Shown here: piece after piece, positions 11,553-64,000 of the stretch | Numbering within the stretch: position 1 is the first letter of the stretch | How the letters are laid out: the number at the start of each line of letters is the position of its first letter | From: Patescibacteria group bacterium | GTDB taxonomy: Bacteria; Patescibacteriota; UBA1384; UBA12157; JAENIV01 | NCBI GenBank assembly: GCA_041666185.1 | Contig: JBAYHL010000001.1 | Location: forward strand, 69,073-133,072 | Reading direction: 5' to 3' | Length of the DNA stretch: 64,000 nt | Notes under the pieces: generated by a model | What the model saw: the letters and a program-made list of their open reading frames with translations, nothing else | Told to the model about the DNA's origin: nothing | Database searches by the model: none | Position numbers and translations under genes: made by a program

Positions 11553-11912
11553 AAAAACAAAAAGGGCTGTCTTGCTAAGAGGACGACCCTTTTTGCTCTA
11601 TATGTTCTAATTTTTTGTAGTTTTTATCCAGCCACCAAGCATTTTACCGATCTCAATTAAAGGCTCGGAAAGTCGTAAAAATTTTTTGTTATCAATTGCC
11701 TTGATATCAAGCAATGCCTTAATTAAAGTTTGCAATATTTTAAGTTTTGTATCGACGGATTGTAAAACGGCGAGACGATTTTGCCCGTATTTTGCGTTTG
11801 CTTCATACAGCATTTCTAAAATATTTAAAGCTGTATTTTCGCATTTGGCCCCAATTGTATACCTATCCTTCTTAGGAATAGTCTCAATAGTGCTGTATAA
11901 ACACAAGTAAAA

Positions 11913-27632: not shown

Positions 27633-29174
27633 GTGAGTAGCATATTAACACGTTTTGTTTATGGTGCAATAATTCTAGTAGTTATAATAGGATCAATTTT
27701 TTATTTTTTAAATCGTAAAAAAATTACTTCTCAAGCCGACCAAACTCTTTCCAAAACTTACGCTACTTTAACTGATGAGGAAAAAAATAGTCTTTTATCA
27801 GCCAGTGCCGATGTAACTAAGCTTAAGGACAAACTTTCGGCTTTAGAAATTACCATTAGTAAATCGGCTCAAACCACAACTCCAGCTGGGCAAACAACAA
27901 CTATTTTACAACCAGTAGCTAATGCTTTAGAAGGTTTAGGAGCACTAAATATTAGTAATGACTCTATTTCACTCGCCCTTTCAGACGGTAGCTTAGCTCA
28001 AAGTGATTCAGGCTTATCGGTTTCTGGAAGCTATGATGATAATTTTTTAAGAGTCGATACAAATTTTGATGGTGATGTAAGTGGAACCTACGACACATTG
28101 GTAATTTCTGAAAGTTACGATGATAGTTTTTTGAAAATCGGCACCAGTTTTGATGGTGATGTGGAAGGAAATTACAACACTTTAGAAATTGTTGACGGAT
28201 CAATCATTAACGCGGACATTAGTAACACGGCAGCAATTTCTTGGACTAAAATTAGCAAAACCGGTGCTCTTTTAACCGATTTTGGTGGTGATCATGGCGA
28301 TTTAGCAGGTTTAGGTAACGATGATCACGTAATTTATGCTCTACTTGCCGGAAGGGCTGGCGGGCAAACCTTAAATGGTGGTACAGCCGCAAATGATGAC
28401 TTAACCTTTGACTCGACAACAAATGGAACTAAGGGATACATACTTATAAACCCAACTGGTGGTAATGTGGGGATTGGTACTGATACACCCACTGGGACAC
28501 TTCATATTAAAGCTGATTCAGATGATCAACAATTAATTATCCAATTAGATGCAGCTCAAACGGTTAACAGCTTTGAAATTTATAAATCTGATGGTACAAC
28601 TAGATTAGTATCTTTTGAAGATGATGGCACATTAGTTTTTGAAAATGATGCGGTAGTTTATGATGATTTACAACAACCAGGCCTTTTAGTCAGAACAAAT
28701 GCTTCGGCTCCGGATTTAGTCACATTTGGACCAGTGGTTACTAATCTTATCATTTATGGTTTTGATGGAACTGCTACCCTTGAACAAGTTTATTTTAATG
28801 TTCAACTTCCTCATTCCTACAAACTCGGAACGGATCTTTACCCACATATTCACTGGTCACCAACCGATACTTCAGCCGGAAATGTTGTTTGGAAGCTAGA
28901 ATATAGCTGGGCGGATGTAAACGGTACTTTTGCAGCGCCAACAACAATAGCGACAACTCCCCAAGCTACTGGCGGAACCGCTTGGGCACATAATGTAGTA
29001 TCGTTTCCAACAATTAGTGGCACTGGAGTTGATATTTCAAGAATTTTAGTTTGTCGTCTGTATCGCGATCCGGCTGATGCTGGCGACACTTACACTCATG
29101 ACGCTGCTCTTTTAAATTTTGATTTCCATTTTGAAAAAGATACTTTAGGTTCTAGAGAACTATGGATAAAATAA
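27633..29174 (+). CDS. Membrane-anchored repeat protein (tail-fibre-like beta-rich protein, hypothetical)
   Basis: It has an N-terminal TM helix and tandem copies of SYDDxFLxxxTxFDGDVxGxYxTLxI. Confidence 0.45.
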   Translation: MSSILTRFVYGAIILVVIIGSIFYFLNRKKITSQADQTLSKTYATLTDEEKNSLLSASADVTKLKDKLSALEITISKSAQTTTPAGQTTTILQPVANALEGLGALNISNDSISLALSDGSLAQSDSGLSVSGSYDDNFLRVDTNFDGDVSGTYDTLVISESYDDSFLKIGTSFDGDVEGNYNTLEIVDGSIINADISNTAAISWTKISKTGALLTDFGGDHGDLAGLGNDDHVIYALLAGRAGGQTLNGGTAANDDLTFDSTTNGTKGYILINPTGGNVGIGTDTPTGTLHIKADSDDQQLIIQLDAAQTVNSFEIYKSDGTTRLVSFEDDGTLVFENDAVVYDDLQQPGLLVRTNASAPDLVTFGPVVTNLIIYGFDGTATLEQVYFNVQLPHSYKLGTDLYPHIHWSPTDTSAGNVVWKLEYSWADVNGTFAAPTTIATTPQATGGTAWAHNVVSFPTISGTGVDISRILVCRLYRDPADAGDTYTHDAALLNFDFHFEKDTLGSRELWIK

Positions 29175-42449: not shown

Positions 42450-42571
42450 ATGGTTTCTGTTTCTAAAATTATTTTTTCTTGAGTTATAACTATTTAGCTA
42501 TACTAAAAAATCGCCGGAAAAGCGATATTTTTAATTATGTAATTATATAAATTTACACTTTAGGATATTAA

Positions 42572-42643
42572 AGGGCCTGGTGAGGATCGAACTCACGACA
42601 AATTGCTTAAGAGGCAATCGCTCTACCACTGAGCTACAGGCCC
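42572..42643 (-). tRNA. tRNA-Lys (anticodon CTT)
   Basis: Cloverleaf read by hand. The anticodon loop is CTCTTAA and the T-arm GTGAGTTCGATCCTCAC. Confidence 0.8.
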
Positions 42644-42719
42644 TGGCGCCCCTGGAGGGAATCGAACCCCCAACCTTGACGTTAGAACCGTCCTGCTCTG
42701 TCCGTTGAGCTACAGGGGC
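42644..42719 (-). tRNA. tRNA-Arg (anticodon TCT), CCA encoded
   Basis: The acceptor is GCCCCTG/CAGGGGC, the anticodon loop GTTCTAA and the T-arm GGGGGTTCGATTCCCTC. It abuts tRNA-Lys with no spacer. Confidence 0.75.
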
Positions 42720-58635: not shown

Positions 58636-58729
58636 CTCCTTGTATTCTGTTTACAGCATAAAACATAATTAGAACTTTTACAACCTGTTGAAATCAAGCC
58701 CAAATATTGATATAATAACTTAAGCATTA

Positions 58730-58806
58730 GGGCCCGTAGCGTAGCGGTTTAACGCGCCTCCCTGTCACGGAGGAGATCGCCGGTTCGAATCCGGTCGGGC
58801 CCGCCA
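58730..58806 (+). tRNA. tRNA-Asp (anticodon GTC), CCA encoded
   Basis: The acceptor is GGGCCCG/CGGGCCC, the anticodon loop CTGTCAC and the T-arm GCCGGTTCGAATCCGGT. Confidence 0.85.
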
Positions 58807-60399
58807 TTCCAAACGAAGAAGCCGTAAAGCTTCTTTTTTGGTATCATTTAAACCAGTTGTTACCCCTGCTAACACTGGTTCCAACCTTTTATATTTGGCT
58901 TCTACCGCTGGATAACGATTAATGATGGGAATCAGCCATTCATTAGGTTTAATATCCAATAATCCGTCTTTTAGCACAAAGTTCCAACCTAAAGCTGAGA
59001 AGATCTCTTTCTTTTGCTGAATATCCCCTATTTCAAAGGCTTTCAAGGCATATGTTACAAAATCAAAGAATCTCTCCCCTAACTCCATCCATTTCTCTGC
59101 TCTGTGGTCAGTATCCTTAAGTTCTTCCTGTAATTTAGCTTTTTTTGCTATCAATTCCTGTTTATTTTGAATATATTCGTCGTCATCTATTAATGATCGC
59201 AATTTCATTTTAAGTAGGTTATCGAGTTCAGTCTGAGTATTATTGATAGCTTTTTGTTGTGATTGATAGATCTTATTTCGATCACCAATTTCTTGATTGC
59301 TCCGACGATTCACAACCGATAGTGCCCAATCTCGAAAAACTGGCATTATTTTTATCCTACTAATCTCTCTTTCAATTTGTGTTTCGAGATTATCCTTGGT
59401 TATATACCCTTGCGAACACCATTTTTTCTTATGAGTGCAATGATAATAAGTAAAACTCTTCAATCGATTAGTACTTTTTATAAGTTTTGTTTTCATCTCG
59501 GCAGTGATTAGACAACCACACTCACCGCAACGGATCTGACCAGTAAAAGGAAAATAGTGCGTTTTGGGTCTTGGTTTGCCTTTTCTACCAAGTAATATTT
59601 GCACTTGATCAAATTCATCAAGAGTTACCATCGCTTCATGCTTCCCGGGATATTCTACCCCTTTATGTAAGATTACGCCTGAATAAAAGGGGTTGGTAAA
59701 CATTGCATAGATTGAACTCCGTGCCAAAGGACCACCGCCCCTTTTTCGCCTTTTTAAAGTAGTAAAACCCCACTGGTTGTTAGCTATATCAAGAATTATT
59801 GGTGGGGTGTAGTTGCCTGTCAGCATTAAATCCCACATTTTTCTAACTAAATCAAATCTTTTCGGATCTTTTATGATTGTATGTTCTGCAGTTTCAATAT
59901 TTACAAAATTTAAATAACCATTGGGTGCTTCTGAAGGCAACCAACCCATACTTAGCTTCTTCTCTAGTCCTCTTTTAACATCAGTTCCGAGTTTAGCTGA
60001 ATAATATTGGCCTTGCGAGAGTACCATTTGCAACATCAAAATACCAGACGCATCATTAATAAAACTATATGAACCGAATTTTAGATCTTTTATAACGCCA
60101 GTTCTTAAGGCATAAGTAATATTGGCAGCGTCTATCTCGTTTCTTGAAAGCCTATCGGGATGCCAAGAGATTATTCCATGAGCTTCGCCTTTTTCGATTC
60201 TTTCCATCATTTTTTGAAATAAAGGCCGATTATATGGCTTGAAAGCACTATGACTTTCTTCGAAATAGTCAACTATCGTCAACTCACCAAAGTATTCTTT
60301 GATTTTATCTTTTTGAGCGGGGATAGAAAGGGCTTGTCGCTCTTCACCTTCGCTGGATTTTCTCAAATAAGCAAAATATTTAATCTTTTCCATATTCAT
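58765..60399 (-). CDS. Large serine recombinase (resolvase catalytic domain, recombinase domain and zinc ribbon); 3' end overlaps the tRNA-Asp 3' half
   Basis: YLRKSSEGE...SIPAQ catalytic-Ser context and a CGECGC zinc ribbon. The last about 14 codons translate the tRNA complement. Confidence 0.8.
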   Translation of the reverse strand: MNMEKIKYFAYLRKSSEGEERQALSIPAQKDKIKEYFGELTIVDYFEESHSAFKPYNRPLFQKMMERIEKGEAHGIISWHPDRLSRNEIDAANITYALRTGVIKDLKFGSYSFINDASGILMLQMVLSQGQYYSAKLGTDVKRGLEKKLSMGWLPSEAPNGYLNFVNIETAEHTIIKDPKRFDLVRKMWDLMLTGNYTPPIILDIANNQWGFTTLKRRKRGGGPLARSSIYAMFTNPFYSGVILHKGVEYPGKHEAMVTLDEFDQVQILLGRKGKPRPKTHYFPFTGQIRCGECGCLITAEMKTKLIKSTNRLKSFTYYHCTHKKKWCSQGYITKDNLETQIEREISRIKIMPVFRDWALSVVNRRSNQEIGDRNKIYQSQQKAINNTQTELDNLLKMKLRSLIDDDEYIQNKQELIAKKAKLQEELKDTDHRAEKWMELGERFFDFVTYALKAFEIGDIQQKKEIFSALGWNFVLKDGLLDIKPNEWLIPIINRYPAVEAKYKRLEPVLAGVTTGLNDTKKEALRLLRLEWRARPDSNRRSPP

Positions 60400-60441
60400 A
60401 CCTCCTTCGGAGGGTATATTACACCTGTTACATCTTAAATA

Positions 60442-60633
60442 TCAAGGTTTCAATTCTTTTCGCCTCTTTTGAACCGTTTTATATTCTTCAATAGTCATGG
60501 GCTTATAAATAATTTCAAACAAACGAACCAGTTTCGTACCCCGTTCTCTTGCATCTTCTTGGCTAATTTCTTTACCAAACTGTTGCCGATAAATCGCCTG
60601 AAATTGTGTTATTTCGTCGTCTGTTAAAAACAT
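60442..60633 (-). CDS. Small hypothetical protein (63 aa)
   Basis: ORF only. Confidence 0.35.
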   Translation of the reverse strand: MFLTDDEITQFQAIYRQQFGKEISQEDARERGTKLVRLFEIIYKPMTIEEYKTVQKRRKELKP

Positions 60634-60638
60634 TGTCG

Positions 60639-60950
60639 TTAATACCCATTAATTTTTGATAACTTATCTTTTGTGTTTTCTGTTTTTCCATAGCCTCGAC
60701 TTTTACCAAATGTTTTAAGATAATAAATTATTGATCTCGCGTCTCCAGCTTTGATAGCATTGATTAAATAGTATTCTGCTATATCCAAAGTAGTTTCACG
60801 CACCTCTACCAGTAAATCTTCCAAATGATATCTTTTTATAGCCCGATAGACGCTTTTCCTCGAAACACCCAGTCCGTTAGCAACATGAGTAATCAAACCT
60901 AATTTGTTTTTTATTGCTATTTCTAGCAGTTCTTTCTTAATTCTTCCCAT
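60639..60950 (-). CDS. Helix-turn-helix DNA-binding protein
   Basis: HVANGLGVSRKSVYRAIKR forms an HTH. Confidence 0.5.
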   Translation of the reverse strand: MGRIKKELLEIAIKNKLGLITHVANGLGVSRKSVYRAIKRYHLEDLLVEVRETTLDIAEYYLINAIKAGDARSIIYYLKTFGKSRGYGKTENTKDKLSKINGY

Positions 60951-61216
60951 TTCATACCTTCAAATTGCGTGACCTTTGTGGACTTTACACCTTATCGCTT
61001 ATTAATAATTTGAATATTTTTACCTACATTCCTTGCCATTTTCCCGTTATCGCCCACCATTTGTGCTACATTTTGATCAATTTTTATATCATTTTGTTAA
61101 CATTCCGGCTTTATGAAGACACCGTAGATAGCTATATATAAATAACTTGTTAGAAGATAACTAGATTAGCTACTAACTAACTTAGCTATTAGATAGATTA
61201 GATAATAGCTATATAG

Positions 61217-61525
61217 CTATGGCTTTATATCATCTAAATTAATATCTTCATCCTCTATGGAGTTTTTCCTTTTTTCATATTCCTCAAGAGTCAGTCTAGC
61301 AAGTTTATCTTCTAAAACTGAATCTAATATTTTTATTGGTGCAACCCATGCTTGACCACACTTGAATTTAGGCACTTGCACCCAAAGACCACCATTTTTG
61401 CTAATTGAAACTCGCCCCCATTTCAATTCAGCTTTTTCAAAAATCCAAACAACCCTTGCTAAAGTGTTCCCCTTATTAACTAAATCGATTTCAATCGAGG
61501 TTAATTCACCCAAATTCAGTTCCAT
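61217..61525 (-). CDS. Hypothetical protein (102 aa)
   Basis: ORF only. Confidence 0.35.
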   Translation of the reverse strand: MELNLGELTSIEIDLVNKGNTLARVVWIFEKAELKWGRVSISKNGGLWVQVPKFKCGQAWVAPIKILDSVLEDKLARLTLEEYEKRKNSIEDEDINLDDIKP

Positions 61526-61538
61526 CTACATCTCCATT

Positions 61539-61769
61539 CTATTTTTCGCTAAATATCCTATCTTTTAAGTCTTGAACTTTGTTAACATAGGATTTCACTT
61601 TTGTTATCGCTTGATTCTGCCAATAAGCGTTTGTGAGTTCGTTGAGATCCTTAGTTTCTTTAAAAACGAACCAAAATTTATGCCCATCGTTGTCCATTCG
61701 AATTAAGTTTTGGTTTTCGTTTAGAAGAAATGCACACAGGTAGAGATCCTTTAGTTTGATTTCGTTCAT
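61539..61769 (-). CDS. Hypothetical protein (76 aa)
   Basis: ORF only. Confidence 0.35.
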   Translation of the reverse strand: MNEIKLKDLYLCAFLLNENQNLIRMDNDGHKFWFVFKETKDLNELTNAYWQNQAITKVKSYVNKVQDLKDRIFSEK

Positions 61770-61815
61770 TTTTGATCCTTTCTACATATCATCTTTGATA
61801 TAATAATTTTTAGGT

Positions 61816-62064
61816 TTAATACTTTTTAGGTTCAACATCATCGGTAGAAAATACAGAAGCCCTAAATCTTTGAGGAATCGGCTTGCCAAAGAAAACCGAC
61901 TTTGGACGAATCTCATAAAAAGGGCATTTGGGCATTTGACAATCCCAACCTCCGCCATGACGATTTTGACCTTCGCAATCAAAACATTTGAACTCAATTC
62001 GTTCATGAAAATCATTAATTTTTGATTGCAATTCTTTTATTTTTTTGCTTTGAAGTTTGCTCAT
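61816..62064 (-). CDS. Small Cys-rich zinc-ribbon protein
   Basis: CFDCEG...CQMPKCP. Confidence 0.4.
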   Translation of the reverse strand: MSKLQSKKIKELQSKINDFHERIEFKCFDCEGQNRHGGGWDCQMPKCPFYEIRPKSVFFGKPIPQRFRASVFSTDDVEPKKY

Positions 62065-62178
62065 ATGATTTCAGTAGGGATATACGACGAATTCTTGTCA
62101 AGACCCTGCGACATAAAAAAGAGACCTGTAAATTTACAAATCTCTTTTCTAATTTATTTTTTCGTCGTATTTTTCTTG

Positions 62179-62874
62179 TTAAGGCATTTTTAGCATAAAC
62201 TCATAGCCTTTGCTCGAACGATCAAAATTAGACAACTCAATATAACCATCCCAATCTTTCGGGACTATTTTTTTCCAATTACCTTTAGTATCATCAATCC
62301 ATTTTACATAAACTGTTTTCTCGAACAACTTGAATATCATTTTCACAACATCCTCTCGTGTAAAACTCGCTTTGAGCCATTTACCTTCTCTAACACCCTC
62401 TCGTTTTAATAACGCGACGATAGCTCTCATAAAATGATAGCAATCTGTCCCTCTTGTATTGGATGGCGAGAAATTTATTGCCTTTGGATCACCACCTGGC
62501 ACTTTTAATTTAAATGTTAAATCATCAAACCAAAAATCTCTTTCATCTTCAGGATTACAATCTTTCCTTTTAGTAATTAATTTGTAATAGTTTTCAAAAG
62601 CCGATTCGTCAATTATCTCAACTGTAGCATTAGCAAAGTTGTTAGAATTAGGAAGTCTTTTTATAAAACCTTTTTCGCATAAATAGTTAATAATTTCCAG
62701 TGTGTCGCCTACTCCGCATATGTCATCTACGGAAAATGGTACAAATGATAAAGTTCGACTACCATCCAAAGTAATTTCACTTTTTATCTTTCGTATGATG
62801 TTAATTACTGCATTTGTTTTATATTCTCTGTTCGCCAAAAAAGGATCATCCATATCAATCTCCATCTCTGCCAA
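62179..62874 (-). CDS. Hypothetical protein (231 aa)
   Basis: ORF only. Confidence 0.4.
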   Translation of the reverse strand: MAEMEIDMDDPFLANREYKTNAVINIIRKIKSEITLDGSRTLSFVPFSVDDICGVGDTLEIINYLCEKGFIKRLPNSNNFANATVEIIDESAFENYYKLITKRKDCNPEDERDFWFDDLTFKLKVPGGDPKAINFSPSNTRGTDCYHFMRAIVALLKREGVREGKWLKASFTREDVVKMIFKLFEKTVYVKWIDDTKGNWKKIVPKDWDGYIELSNFDRSSKGYEFMLKMP

Positions 62875-62949
62875 TCATAACACGAAAAACTTGAAATTTT
62901 ACTCTGGGTGGCATAGAATTAAACTATAAATTAGAATTAGCACATTATT

Positions 62950-63095
62950 AAACCGCCTAAACCCGTAAGGGCATGGCAACCAAAAATCCTACAGTGATAT
63001 AAACGGTCTTTCGACCGCACTTATTCACTGTAGGTTCATACCCGAAAGGGTGTGGGACAGTTCCGAAAGGAATTGTCGTGGTTCGAAAGACCATT
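62950..63095 (+). ncRNA. Candidate structured cis-regulatory RNA (multiple GNRA-capped hairpins, alternative terminator/antiterminator pairing, U-tract)
   Basis: Hairpins: CCCGTAAGGG; the pair CCTACAGTGA...TCACTGTAGG enclosing GGTCTTTCGACC; ACCCGAAAGGGT; TTCCGAAAGGAA; TGGTTCGAAAGACCA followed by TTTTTG. The segment at 62996-63007 can alternatively pair with 63071-63083. Confidence 0.4.
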
Positions 63096-63113
63096 TTTGT
63101 ATTTAAAAAAAGG

Positions 63114-63248
63114 GAAATAATCATGAGTGAAAATAAAGATTCAAATAAAGTCTATGGTGATGATTCAAATTGGTGGTGCAGTTGTATCATAGGAGTTGTT
63201 GGAATAATTATAAGCCTATATATTTTGCGTTGGATAGTACATTTTTTA
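63114..63248 (+). CDS. 44-aa hydrophobic peptide (MSENKDSNKVYGDDSNWWCSCIIGVVGIIISLYILRWIVHFLIY), possible small membrane toxin/holin-like peptide
   Basis: RBS AAAGGGAAATAATC-ATG with a single TM helix. It lies immediately downstream of the structured RNA and terminator. Confidence 0.35.
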
Positions 63249-63267
63249 ATTTATTGAGAAGTGGATC

Positions 63268-63915
63268 ATGCTTAAAAAAATATCTATTTCCTTATTAACC
63301 ATCGTTATCTTATTAACAACTGGATTTTTTATTTATCGCCATTTTGATAATAAAAAGGTTGAGGGCATTCAAGATGCGAACTCAAAAATTATCGGAATCC
63401 CAATAGAATCAAAAAATAAACCCAGCCCTCTCAAGAGTTCGAGCCAAAGCCCTAATCAAAACAATTTAGTTTCTGAAAATAAAAATCAAAATAATACCTC
63501 AAATTCCACACCGTCCTCTACTGCATCAGAGACTAATGATTCTGACAATGATTTTACAGTTCCAAACTACCCAATACCGAGTTATAGCGATGACTATACA
63601 AATTCTTTAATTAATCGAGCCCAAGAAGAAGCTCAAAAATCACATGAGTCCCTACAAAAAGCCGAAGATTGCTTTGCTTTTCAAGCGCAAAAAGATGCCG
63701 AATTTCTTCCACTTAAGCAAGCCATTAGTGAACTTTGGAACCAATACTACAATGCAGACAAGATTGTTGCTGAAAGAACACGAGGCACGGATGTTAATGA
63801 GTCGCAAAGACTTCGATTAGTTGAAGCAGAAAAACAAAAAATAAAAGCCGACATAGATCAATTCCAAGCTGAATATAACAGACTATATTCAAATTACGGA
63901 GAATGCAATTATTAA
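63268..63915 (+). CDS. Secreted/anchored hypothetical protein with Asn/Ser-rich linker and coiled-coil C-terminus
   Basis: Signal anchor followed by low-complexity sequence. Confidence 0.45.
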   Translation: MLKKISISLLTIVILLTTGFFIYRHFDNKKVEGIQDANSKIIGIPIESKNKPSPLKSSSQSPNQNNLVSENKNQNNTSNSTPSSTASETNDSDNDFTVPNYPIPSYSDDYTNSLINRAQEEAQKSHESLQKAEDCFAFQAQKDAEFLPLKQAISELWNQYYNADKIVAERTRGTDVNESQRLRLVEAEKQKIKADIDQFQAEYNRLYSNYGECNY

Positions 63916-64000
63916 TTCTTAATTGAAAAAGGAAATGGCAAATAAAAATAAAGATTTCAAATGTCTTTGTGAAAATCCAGATTGTGCTAAATGCCTTTCT

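Follow-up and report, generated by a model that had tools for sequence, protein, structure and literature searches.

Near the right-hand end of a 64,000-nt stretch of the Patescibacteria group bacterium contig JBAYHL010000001.1 (assembly GCA_041666185.1, positions 69,073 to 133,072; hereafter the window), the open reading frame (ORF) of a large serine recombinase (LSR) runs into the gene for tRNA-Asp(GTC). This raises the question of why a recombinase gene should end inside a tRNA, and of whether the DNA next to it belongs to an integrated element. The initial annotation had proposed such an element, with the tRNA 3' half carried by its attachment site attP. Our analysis makes it highly probable that an LSR-driven element was inserted at the extreme 3' end of this host tRNA, and that its attP lies within the LSR ORF. 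The overlap, which had been put at about 42 nt, was confirmed by ARAGORN and by the ORF coordinates: it covers 58765-58806, the 3' 42 nt of the tRNA, and the LSR stop codon TGA is the reverse complement of TCA, formed by anticodon positions 35-36 and base 37. The same 42-nt overlap recurs in three relatives (L006, L008 and L010; loci are given L numbers and proteins P numbers) whose LSRs are 72-81% identical to that of the window, and it is thus not a product of chance.

Empty versions of the site were sought by scanning metagenome contigs with the host-flank protein, the product of a cellulase-like gene adjoining the tRNA. A tRNA-Asp gene beside the orthologous cellulase-like gene, with no LSR, was found in L175, L177, L178, L179, L181, L185 and L187; these homologues keep the whole tRNA, and divergence starts only after its CCA end. 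L187, which is empty, and L008, which is occupied, come from the same species. On the side of the tRNA and the cellulase-like gene they are 98.97% identical over 1,160 nt, and on the other side L187 agrees with L008 2380-2843 at all of 464 nt, made up of a 9-nt core and of 455 nt past the end of the tRNA. Between ...GGCCCGCCA and ACGAAATAA..., L008 carries an exact insertion of 8,768 bp, with an LSR 72% identical to the window's, and the direct repeat consists of the 9 nt GGCCCGCCA only, the last 9 nt of the tRNA.

The attachment sites can be read from this pair in tRNA orientation: attB (L187) is ...GGTCGGGCCCGCCA joined to ACGAAATAATAAG, attL (L008) is ...GGTCGGGCCCGCCA joined to TTCGAGACGCAGAGC, and attR (L008) is ...CCACTATGGCCCGCCA joined to ACGAAATAATAAG. 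The tRNA-Asp of the window is identical in sequence to those of both L008 and L187, and the window attL (...GAATGGCGGGCCCGACCGGATTCGAACC on the LSR strand) is identical to L008 attL in core and tRNA. Orthologous loci thus exist in empty and occupied form, with a clean insertion in L008 relative to L187, as the proposal of an integrated element implied; nor do orthologous genomes carry the same genes at this tRNA, as they would if these were ancestral, since they show empty sites and differing cargo (cargo differs between the window, L001, L006 and L008). Far ends of further elements were found with the DNA pattern TGG-N18-GTT[AC]GAAC, and both ends could be mapped in L011, L025, L044 and L071, which span 10.0-11.5 kb and have cores of 6-9 nt at the tRNA 3' end.

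Several other features of these loci were observed. L185 is the empty site closest to the window host, with 76 of 77 tRNA bases identical; the protein downstream of it has no orthologue in the metagenome-assembled genome from which the window comes, and an ORF for a GIY-YIG nuclease (879-1163) lies there between tRNA-Asp and the cellulase-like gene, a position in which the window has none. In L176 (7592-7668) and L186 (3134-3210), tRNA-Asp is inverted relative to the cellulase-like gene, whereas it points the opposite way in the window, L008, L175 and others. L008 also carries, at 549-578, a second att core and P arm (TGGCGGGCC-AAAGTGGACGATGTTAGAACT), 2.3 kb beyond the true attR and with a methyltransferase gene in between; this is probably the remnant of an older insertion, so that the 'empty' site of L187 may itself adjoin an insertion remnant.

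The position of attP becomes apparent when the two ends of the L008 element are rejoined. The result is a 560-aa ORF ending RLEWRA-IVDDVRTEIMNYKGQIYIPVLNF, with a free-form tail ...EWRA-IVDDVRT..., and the integrated form has 547 aa and ends ...RLEWRA-RPDSNRRSPP. The closest relatives of the window LSR also occur in unsplit form: P0003 (L254, 556 aa) and P0005 and P0007 (L255, 558 aa) have tails of the form ...(E/D)WRS-IV(E/D)DVRT..., and the attP core of L254 and L255 is TGGCGGTC(A/C), of which only CCGCCA (TGGCGG on the LSR strand) is common with tRNA-Asp. L054 (10001-20281) carries a tandem of two LSR elements at a single tRNA-Asn; the outer LSR adjoins the tRNA, and the inner one is completed in frame by the far (P) arm of its neighbor (WLHMLNEVRT...). 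The sister LSRs of L090, L091 and L092 (79-89% protein identity), of which the first adjoins tRNA-Asn, the second no tRNA and the third tRNA-Trp, diverge immediately after TGG(C). Judged from these sequences, attP lies within the LSR ORF, and the ORF is split on integration in relatives 72-79% identical to the window's; from the identical junction we infer the same split for the window LSR, whose attP junction is predicted to be ...CTTCGTTTGGAATGGCGG joined to the P arm. Insertion polymorphism, att sequences and ORF split are all directly visible in relatives, and the window has the same junction geometry.

The 42-nt overlap is therefore a split LSR gene reading through into the host tRNA, and not a duplicated tRNA half borne by attP as had initially been supposed; known attL/attR pairs share 6-9 nt only. 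The antisense strand of the host tRNA (58765-58797) encodes the last 10 aa of the LSR, RPDSNRRSPP, and the stop. The 9-nt att core coincides with the W-R-A codons (58798-58806), and the LSR codons upstream of these are element DNA. The tRNA-Asp gene is host DNA except for about its last 3-6 nt and constitutes the B half of attL. Across 31 aligned homologues (47-81% identity), residue W532 is near-invariant and encoded by TGG, the reverse complement of the tRNA CCA end, and the residues that follow it (..DSN.R.P..) correspond to the antisense acceptor stem and T arm.

A direct repeat of the last 20-45 nt of the tRNA had been expected to mark the far end, but neither the window nor the 4.2 kb that follow it (L001, L002) showed any tRNA 3' repeat; as the true repeat has only 6-9 nt, such a check would fail even though the element is real. 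The window likewise holds no second copy of the tRNA 3' end at up to 3 mismatches in a 27-mer or up to 2 mismatches in 16-mers, and the only other copies of GCCCGCCA, at 28358 and 38922, are on the opposite strand and far upstream.

Some candidates for a free attP were not relied on. L091 may be one, but was set aside, as only GGAGCCA is tRNA-like there and the contig is trimmed at the stop codon. The viral contigs L093 and L090 had been taken for free attP sites with half a tRNA-Asn and a crossover in the anticodon loop; this was withdrawn, since the tRNA is complete and split by an intron. The L093 intron has 242 nt (11642-11883, minus strand) and matches the group I family Rfam RF00028 (92.4 bits, E 2e-24); ARAGORN in its default mode missed the tRNA, whose 5' half was located 227 nt further on by comparison with L017. 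The insertion point within this tRNA-Asn, the gene beside the LSR, falls between anticodon positions 35 and 36. L087 (11642-11990) has an intron of this type too, and L090 contains the 3' end of the same intron; that such introns occur in tRNA-Asn of Patescibacteria has already been published (PMC13011429). A further observation concerns L048, where an extra P arm lies 5.4 kb upstream of an unsplit LSR (4606 and 11561).

We then considered how the site may be recognized. All members of the family, those from G+C-rich phyla included, carry conserved 'VRT' codons, GTT-(A/C)GA-AC(C/T), which always start 21 nt after the T of TGG. Their third codon positions are invariant and therefore indicate a constraint on the DNA, that is, on the att site; DVRT as proof of a functional protein motif was for this reason rejected as the default reading. 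Read on the antisense strand, the tRNA T-loop gives TT[AC]GAAC. In each of the five elements mapped at both ends (L008, L011, L025, L044 and L071), GTT[AC]GAAC in the far (P) arm is exactly 5 nt further from the core than TTCGAAC in the tRNA, with distances to the start of TT[AC]GAAC of 13 versus 8, 15 versus 10, 13 versus 8, 14 versus 9 and 11 versus 6. In serine integrases, the motif of the zinc-ribbon domain (ZD) is 5 bp closer to the center in attB than in attP (PMC3783163; LI integrase). By analogy, the tRNA T-loop is probably the attB motif read by the ZD in this clade, and GTTAGAAC is the predicted P-arm motif of the window element.

The range of possible crossover points was taken as the intersection of the five mapped cores and the L254/L255 attP, aligned on the T-loop. 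The positions common to all aligned cores are 3-6 from the tRNA 3' end, or tRNA nt 71-74, and crossover is thus predicted to occur within 58801-58804 of the window; the spacing known for LI would favor C71-C72 (58801-58802). A motif of the ACGAA..GAAG type, common to the P' and B' arms, is also displaced by about 5-6 nt, which is weak evidence. We also noted a T-loop-like near-palindrome, A(A/G)GGTT(A/C/G)GAACC, which encodes a conserved 'RLEP' in the window (about 58874-58887), L008, L090-L093 and L017. Its place within the LSR ORF is about 58 nt upstream of the TGG core in L090-L093 and about 67 nt in the window.

The element also affects what follows the tRNA. The hairpin found directly after the CCA end has a calculated free energy (dG) of -13.4 kcal/mol (z -4.75) and lies antisense within the LSR codons KKEALRLLRLE. 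A strict hairpin with T-run occupies the same place in 31 of the 52 tRNA-linked relatives, with differing sequences. The empty site L185 reads ...GCCCGCCA followed by ACGAAAAGAAGACCTTCTAGTCTTCCTTTTTG, the ACGAAAAGAAGACCTTCTAGTCTTCCTTTTTG side being the native terminator; the element hairpin replaces this displaced native terminator.

Taken together, these data suggest the following course of events. In the free circle, attP would be part of the LSR ORF, with about 25 codons left to the stop. The LSR would recombine it with an attB whose B half is the last ~20 nt of the tRNA (T-loop and 3' strands of the T and acceptor stems) and whose B' half is the start of the native terminator of the tRNA, with strand exchange within tRNA nt 71-74. 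Integration would leave the tRNA intact, the element replacing its last few bases and supplying the new terminator hairpin. The LSR ORF would then run into the antisense tRNA and stop in the anticodon, giving the 42-nt overlap, and the original last ~25 LSR codons (...IV(D/E)DVRT...) would be carried to the far end, in attR.

The LSR has the domains and conserved residues of its class. A search of the ORF with hidden Markov models matched the families that the initial annotation had named, Resolvase (E 5e-18, residues 9-152), Recombinase (1e-5) and Zn_ribbon_recom (4e-7), each of which passed its curated cut-off. The catalytic residues R13-K14-S15 and the four zinc-ribbon cysteines (C291, C294, C321 and C328) are invariant in 31 homologues, and both sets are present in the window LSR. 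By sequence the clade is remote: no LSR of a sequenced phage reaches 27% identity to it, and its match in the PDB is marginal. An AlphaFold (AF2) model of P0003, the unsplit homologue 79% identical to the window LSR, has a mean pLDDT of 81.6. It is built of a catalytic and a recombinase domain, then a zinc ribbon bearing two long coiled-coil helices (351-443) and, after the coiled coil, an extra C-terminal region of ~100 aa. In a Foldseek search the best matches were integrases over their full length, namely those of SPbeta, phiC31, Bxb1 and LI (E between 5e-19 and 2e-11). The last helix of the model (517-543) has W530 at its midpoint and would thus be halved by integration; residues 545-556 are disordered. 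The DNA-level explanation makes a protein role of this tail unnecessary, but the tail may still have one.

Two other explanations of the overlap can be weighed against insertion with attP in the LSR gene. In a classical tRNA island, attP copies the tRNA 3' 20-45 nt, crossover falls in the anticodon or T arm, and the overlap is element DNA. That it takes up precisely the 3' 42 nt, with the stop in the anticodon, would agree with this, and tRNA 3' halves are indeed typical attP cores of tyrosine integrases (Williams 2002); the 'classic' association on which the initial annotation drew belongs to those enzymes, however, and the enzyme here is a serine recombinase. No tRNA repeat of 14 nt or more was detected by blastn-short within 10 kb on the element side at 54 loci, mapped attL/attR pairs have only their short cores in common, the unsplit L254 and L255 part from tRNA-Asp after TGGCGG, L090, L091 and L092 part right after TGG(C) despite their different neighbors, and the sole apparent half-tRNA attP, in L093, is a complete tRNA-Asn with a group I intron. 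We consider a classical island very improbable. The LSR might also be a resident invertase or resolvase that acts on the tRNA-Asp locus without being an element's integrase. Serine recombinases do include invertases, as is well established, and the inverted tRNA-Asp of L176 and L186 could be seen in this light, but neither of these loci has an LSR nearby, a small invertase does not have the complete LSR architecture seen here, zinc ribbon and coiled coil included, and the 8.8-kb presence/absence polymorphism is precise; we give this explanation the least credence of all.

Several observations weigh against an insertion of the kind that we propose, or against parts of it. The far junction of the window element, for which the expected pattern is GTTC[GT]AAC-N12-(G)GNCCGCCA, lies outside the window, as the initial annotation had said of the second att boundary, and no core with P arm was found in the window or in the next 4.2 kb. 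The window's own species yielded no empty site; L185 comes nearest, with a flanking protein 81% identical. No virion, phage, conjugation or replication genes were recognized by Pfam or PHROGs in 9.6 kb of the incomplete element, and its G+C content (0.345) is not distinct from that of the flank (0.347). The P' arm has no copy of GTT[AC]GAAC, dyad-symmetry scoring of attP and attB singled out no center, and both the ZD motif and the exact crossover are assigned by analogy with the LI integrase. That the window element is or was mobile is our inference from its relatives, no excision product having been observed. It could be a fixed remnant, inserted as described and now immobile, with its far end decayed or deleted and its LSR retained without function. 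The unseen far end and the absence of a G+C difference would fit such a state, as would an integrated LSR deprived of its native C-terminal ~25 aa, and the fossil core and P arm of L008 shows that remnants persist. The LSR ORF is intact, however, with all invariant residues present, at least 3 independent assemblies contain the same element sequence, and the element population is mosaic and of recent origin, L001 having swapped a gene between flanks 97-99.6% identical. A fixed remnant is in our view unlikely, albeit less so than the other two alternatives.

The features of the region are collected in the table. Positions 58807-64000 of the window are the recombinase-proximal part of an integrated element of at least 9.6 kb. 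Contig L002 (100% identical to the window) extends 1.8 kb past the window end and L001 (99.6%) 4.2 kb, so that element sequence was traced to the equivalent of ~68.37 kb and 9.6 kb of it was seen. The NCBI proteins MFA6492652-MFA6492665 (locus-tag prefix WCV58_) are encoded within the window and just past its end.

Table. Features of the tRNA-Asp locus and of the adjoining element (window coordinates)
Feature	Position	Strand	Basis or remark
Promoter-like site, TTGAAA-17-TATAAT, TG-extended, host DNA	58688-58716	+	11/12 consensus matches; consensus match only
tRNA-Asp(GTC)	58730-58806	+	ARAGORN; complete gene
LSR ORF, integrated (split) form, 544 aa	58765-60399	-	ORF list and Pfam
T-arm motif GGTTCGAATCC, proposed ZD recognition motif of the attB B half-site	58782-58792	+	5-nt offset in relatives
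att core GGCCCGCCA	58798-58806		9-nt repeat flanking the L008 element
Element-borne P' arm, terminator-like hairpin (58815-58836) and T-run right after CCA	58807-58842	+	Terminator-like call
Conserved 63-aa ORF directly upstream of the LSR	60442-60633	-	No Pfam or PHROG match
103-aa helix-turn-helix protein	60639-60950	-	Pfam HTH_8, E 2.3e-5; weak PHROG repressor-family match
102-aa protein	61217-61525	-	ORF
DUF5659 protein, 76 aa	61539-61769	-	Pfam DUF5659, E 1.4e-10
4-Cys protein, 82 aa	61816-62064	-	CxxC...CxxxxC pattern; no Pfam match
Variable cargo slot, 231-aa gene	62179-62874	-	No family matches
Divergent genes: 59-aa membrane-like ORF and 215-aa protein	63078-64000	+	ORFs

The 63-aa ORF has homologues in the same position in L254 (77%), L006 (75%), L255 (59%) and L093 (31%), and judged by this placement its product is a candidate accessory protein, possibly a directionality factor, which LSRs need for excision. 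The 103-aa protein, labeled 'helix-turn-helix domain-containing protein' by NCBI, is a candidate element regulator. The small genes that had been described next to the recombinase are real ORFs and include the helix-turn-helix gene; the supposed zinc ribbon has a cysteine pattern and no Pfam match, and the stated common direction with the recombinase holds to about 62.9 kb but not for the genes from 63078 to the window end. Genes of the block 61217-62064 are also present in the variant element L001 in diverged form, the 102-aa gene among them, and the helix-turn-helix gene has diverged there as well. In place of the 231-aa gene L001 (1427-2170) has an unrelated 247-aa gene. This swap of one slot between near-identical flanks indicates, at the level of sequence, an element population that is mosaic and recombining. 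Beyond the window follow a double FtsK_gamma protein, ORFs of 169, 124 and 68 aa, a 387-aa Mrr_cat protein and a 471-aa protein, the last ORF of the extended element being 100% identical to P0121. PADLOC, PHROGs and Pfam annotated almost nothing of the cargo, and among viral sequences the Mrr_cat protein has only 40%-identical relatives. The 8.8-kb L008 element has a SIR2-like gene, and no virion genes were found in it.

To see how far the family extends, we scanned one genome per species, which returned 80 loci. In 52 of these ARAGORN places the 3' end of an antisense tRNA within the LSR ORF, and Rfam adds 3, so that at least 55 of the 80 loci abut a tRNA. The tRNAs are of 13 kinds (Asp, Asn, Ser, His, Ile, Trp, Gln, Phe, Tyr, Leu, Lys, Glu and Gly), and most tRNA-linked loci are labeled as Patescibacteria lineages, whereas a tRNA is lacking at this place in members from Acidobacteriota, Caulobacter, Lysobacteraceae and others. 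Tails of the tRNA-antisense type are found in 75 of the 120 best database homologues. The pattern is thus widespread in Patescibacteria and at many different tRNAs, and rarely documented for this enzyme class. LSRs about 79% identical to each other are found at tRNA-Asn and tRNA-Trp, and at tRNA-Gln and tRNA-Asn. In L074 (Caulobacter ginsengisoli DSM 18695), L080, L069 and L084, which come from outside Patescibacteria, GTT[AC]GAAC ('VRT') lies in an apparently unsplit chromosomal ORF with no tRNA nearby. The LSRs of L093 and L017, 47% identical to that of the window, are part of ~9-kb elements with Zot-like and G2P-like replication proteins.

It is tempting to speculate, although we regard it as doubtful, that the clade reads features common to all tRNA genes (the T-loop motif and a crossover at the acceptor end), which would allow easy retargeting, and that the tail swap on integration could be a built-in switch. 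If so, retargeting between tRNA species would need few changes, and exchange of the C-terminal helix could alter the stability of the enzyme, its directionality or its need for a directionality factor between prophage and incoming form.

The window LSR is reminiscent of the A118/LI, SPbeta SprA, phiC31 and Bxb1 integrases in its domain order (catalytic, recombinase, zinc ribbon with coiled coil), and phage LSRs likewise have short att sites with few shared bases at the crossover and an attP motif 5 bp further out. Unlike in those systems, tRNA genes are targeted at their 3' ends instead of protein-coding or intergenic sites, attP is inside the integrase ORF, so that integration replaces its last ~25 residues, and the protein, which shares so little sequence identity with them, has the extra C-terminal region. 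The choice of the extreme 3' end of a tRNA and the location of attP inside the integrase ORF are unusual for a serine integrase, and the T-loop as recognition motif is probably a third unusual feature. Islands of the Islander/TIGER type, which depend on tyrosine integrases, are also inserted at tRNA 3' ends, leave the tRNA functional, have the integrase gene adjoining it and accrete in tandem at one tRNA, as in L054 and at the L008 fossil site. They differ in their enzyme (the only recombinase found here is a serine recombinase, and a tyrosine recombinase is not the integrase) and in the length of their repeats, about 17-45 nt or more versus 6-9 nt, the present element supplying only the last 3-6 nt of the tRNA.

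Gene partition has parallels in two other systems. Fusellovirus integrases of the SSV1 type are tyrosine recombinases of archaeal viruses with attP inside int, and their gene is intact in the circle only. As here, the integrase gene is partitioned on integration; there, however, it is left inactivated in two large parts, whereas the LSR, a serine recombinase of Patescibacteria and not a tyrosine recombinase of an archaeal virus, exchanges ~25 codons and keeps its catalytic and DNA-binding domains intact. In mycobacteriophage BPs and its relatives, which have integration-dependent immunity, attP lies within a gene whose product has its C-terminus altered by integration (PMC4557955). In contrast to the present case, the split gene is that of the repressor and the integrase is a tyrosine recombinase; an effect of the tail swap in the LSR is hypothetical.

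In the TIGER survey, t(m)RNA genes were used by 14 of 297 islands with serine integrases (S-Ints) versus 44.5% for tyrosine integrases (Y-Ints) (Mageeney et al. 2020, PMC7192596), and the use of tRNA genes by serine integrases was called previously unreported and in need of proof (PMC7192596, 2020). Durrant et al., in the main text of their large LSR survey, do not use the word 'tRNA'. Tycheposons include a few LSR elements. Inoviruses occur in hosts of the Candidate Phyla Radiation (CPR), and serine recombinases are among inovirus integration genes, according to Roux et al. 2019 (PMC6813254); the retrieved passages of that paper contain no att architecture like the one described here. The LSR relatives in L093 and L017 belong to Zot/G2P elements and thus resemble CPR inovirus prophages, but the 9.6 kb of the window element holds no inovirus marker. 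In literature of incomplete coverage, we found no description of serine recombinases of Patescibacteria, CPR or Saccharibacteria at tRNAs, so that one may exist, nor, with the same incomplete coverage, of an attP within a serine integrase gene.

Serine integrases are valued as genome-engineering tools, and the natural pair of occupied and empty sites gives the exact attB, attL and attR of one that uses a tRNA. The five mapped elements lead to a testable rule, namely that the T-loop serves as attB motif and recurs in attP with an outward shift of 5 bp. Such enzymes could possibly furnish integration vectors for Patescibacteria, which are hard to manipulate genetically, and form a natural series in which the evolution of LSR target specificity can be studied. 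The C-termini of the 'DSNRR...' type in many database LSRs are explained as read-through into tRNA genes, and island finders that expect long tRNA repeats will miss elements of this kind.

Finally, some minor observations were made. The 471-aa gene, represented by P0121 and P0122 (79% identical), is paired with the Mrr_cat protein in the window element (L001 5098-7549), and in L174 (3344-5458) with a 232-aa protein, between tRNA-Glu and the host dihydroorotate dehydrogenase gene; the 471-aa gene with its partner looks like a movable two-gene cassette, which has no PADLOC match. Contigs L002 and L173 (both ERZ27249449) and L005 (SRR6484324) break inside the LSR gene at about 59715-59748 of the window, and such breaks in at least 2 independent assemblies suggest that LSR variants co-exist in those samples. 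The window has ten tRNA genes in its 64 kb, and the calls for tRNA-Lys(CTT) and tRNA-Arg(TCT), at 42571-42719, overlap by one base, 42644.

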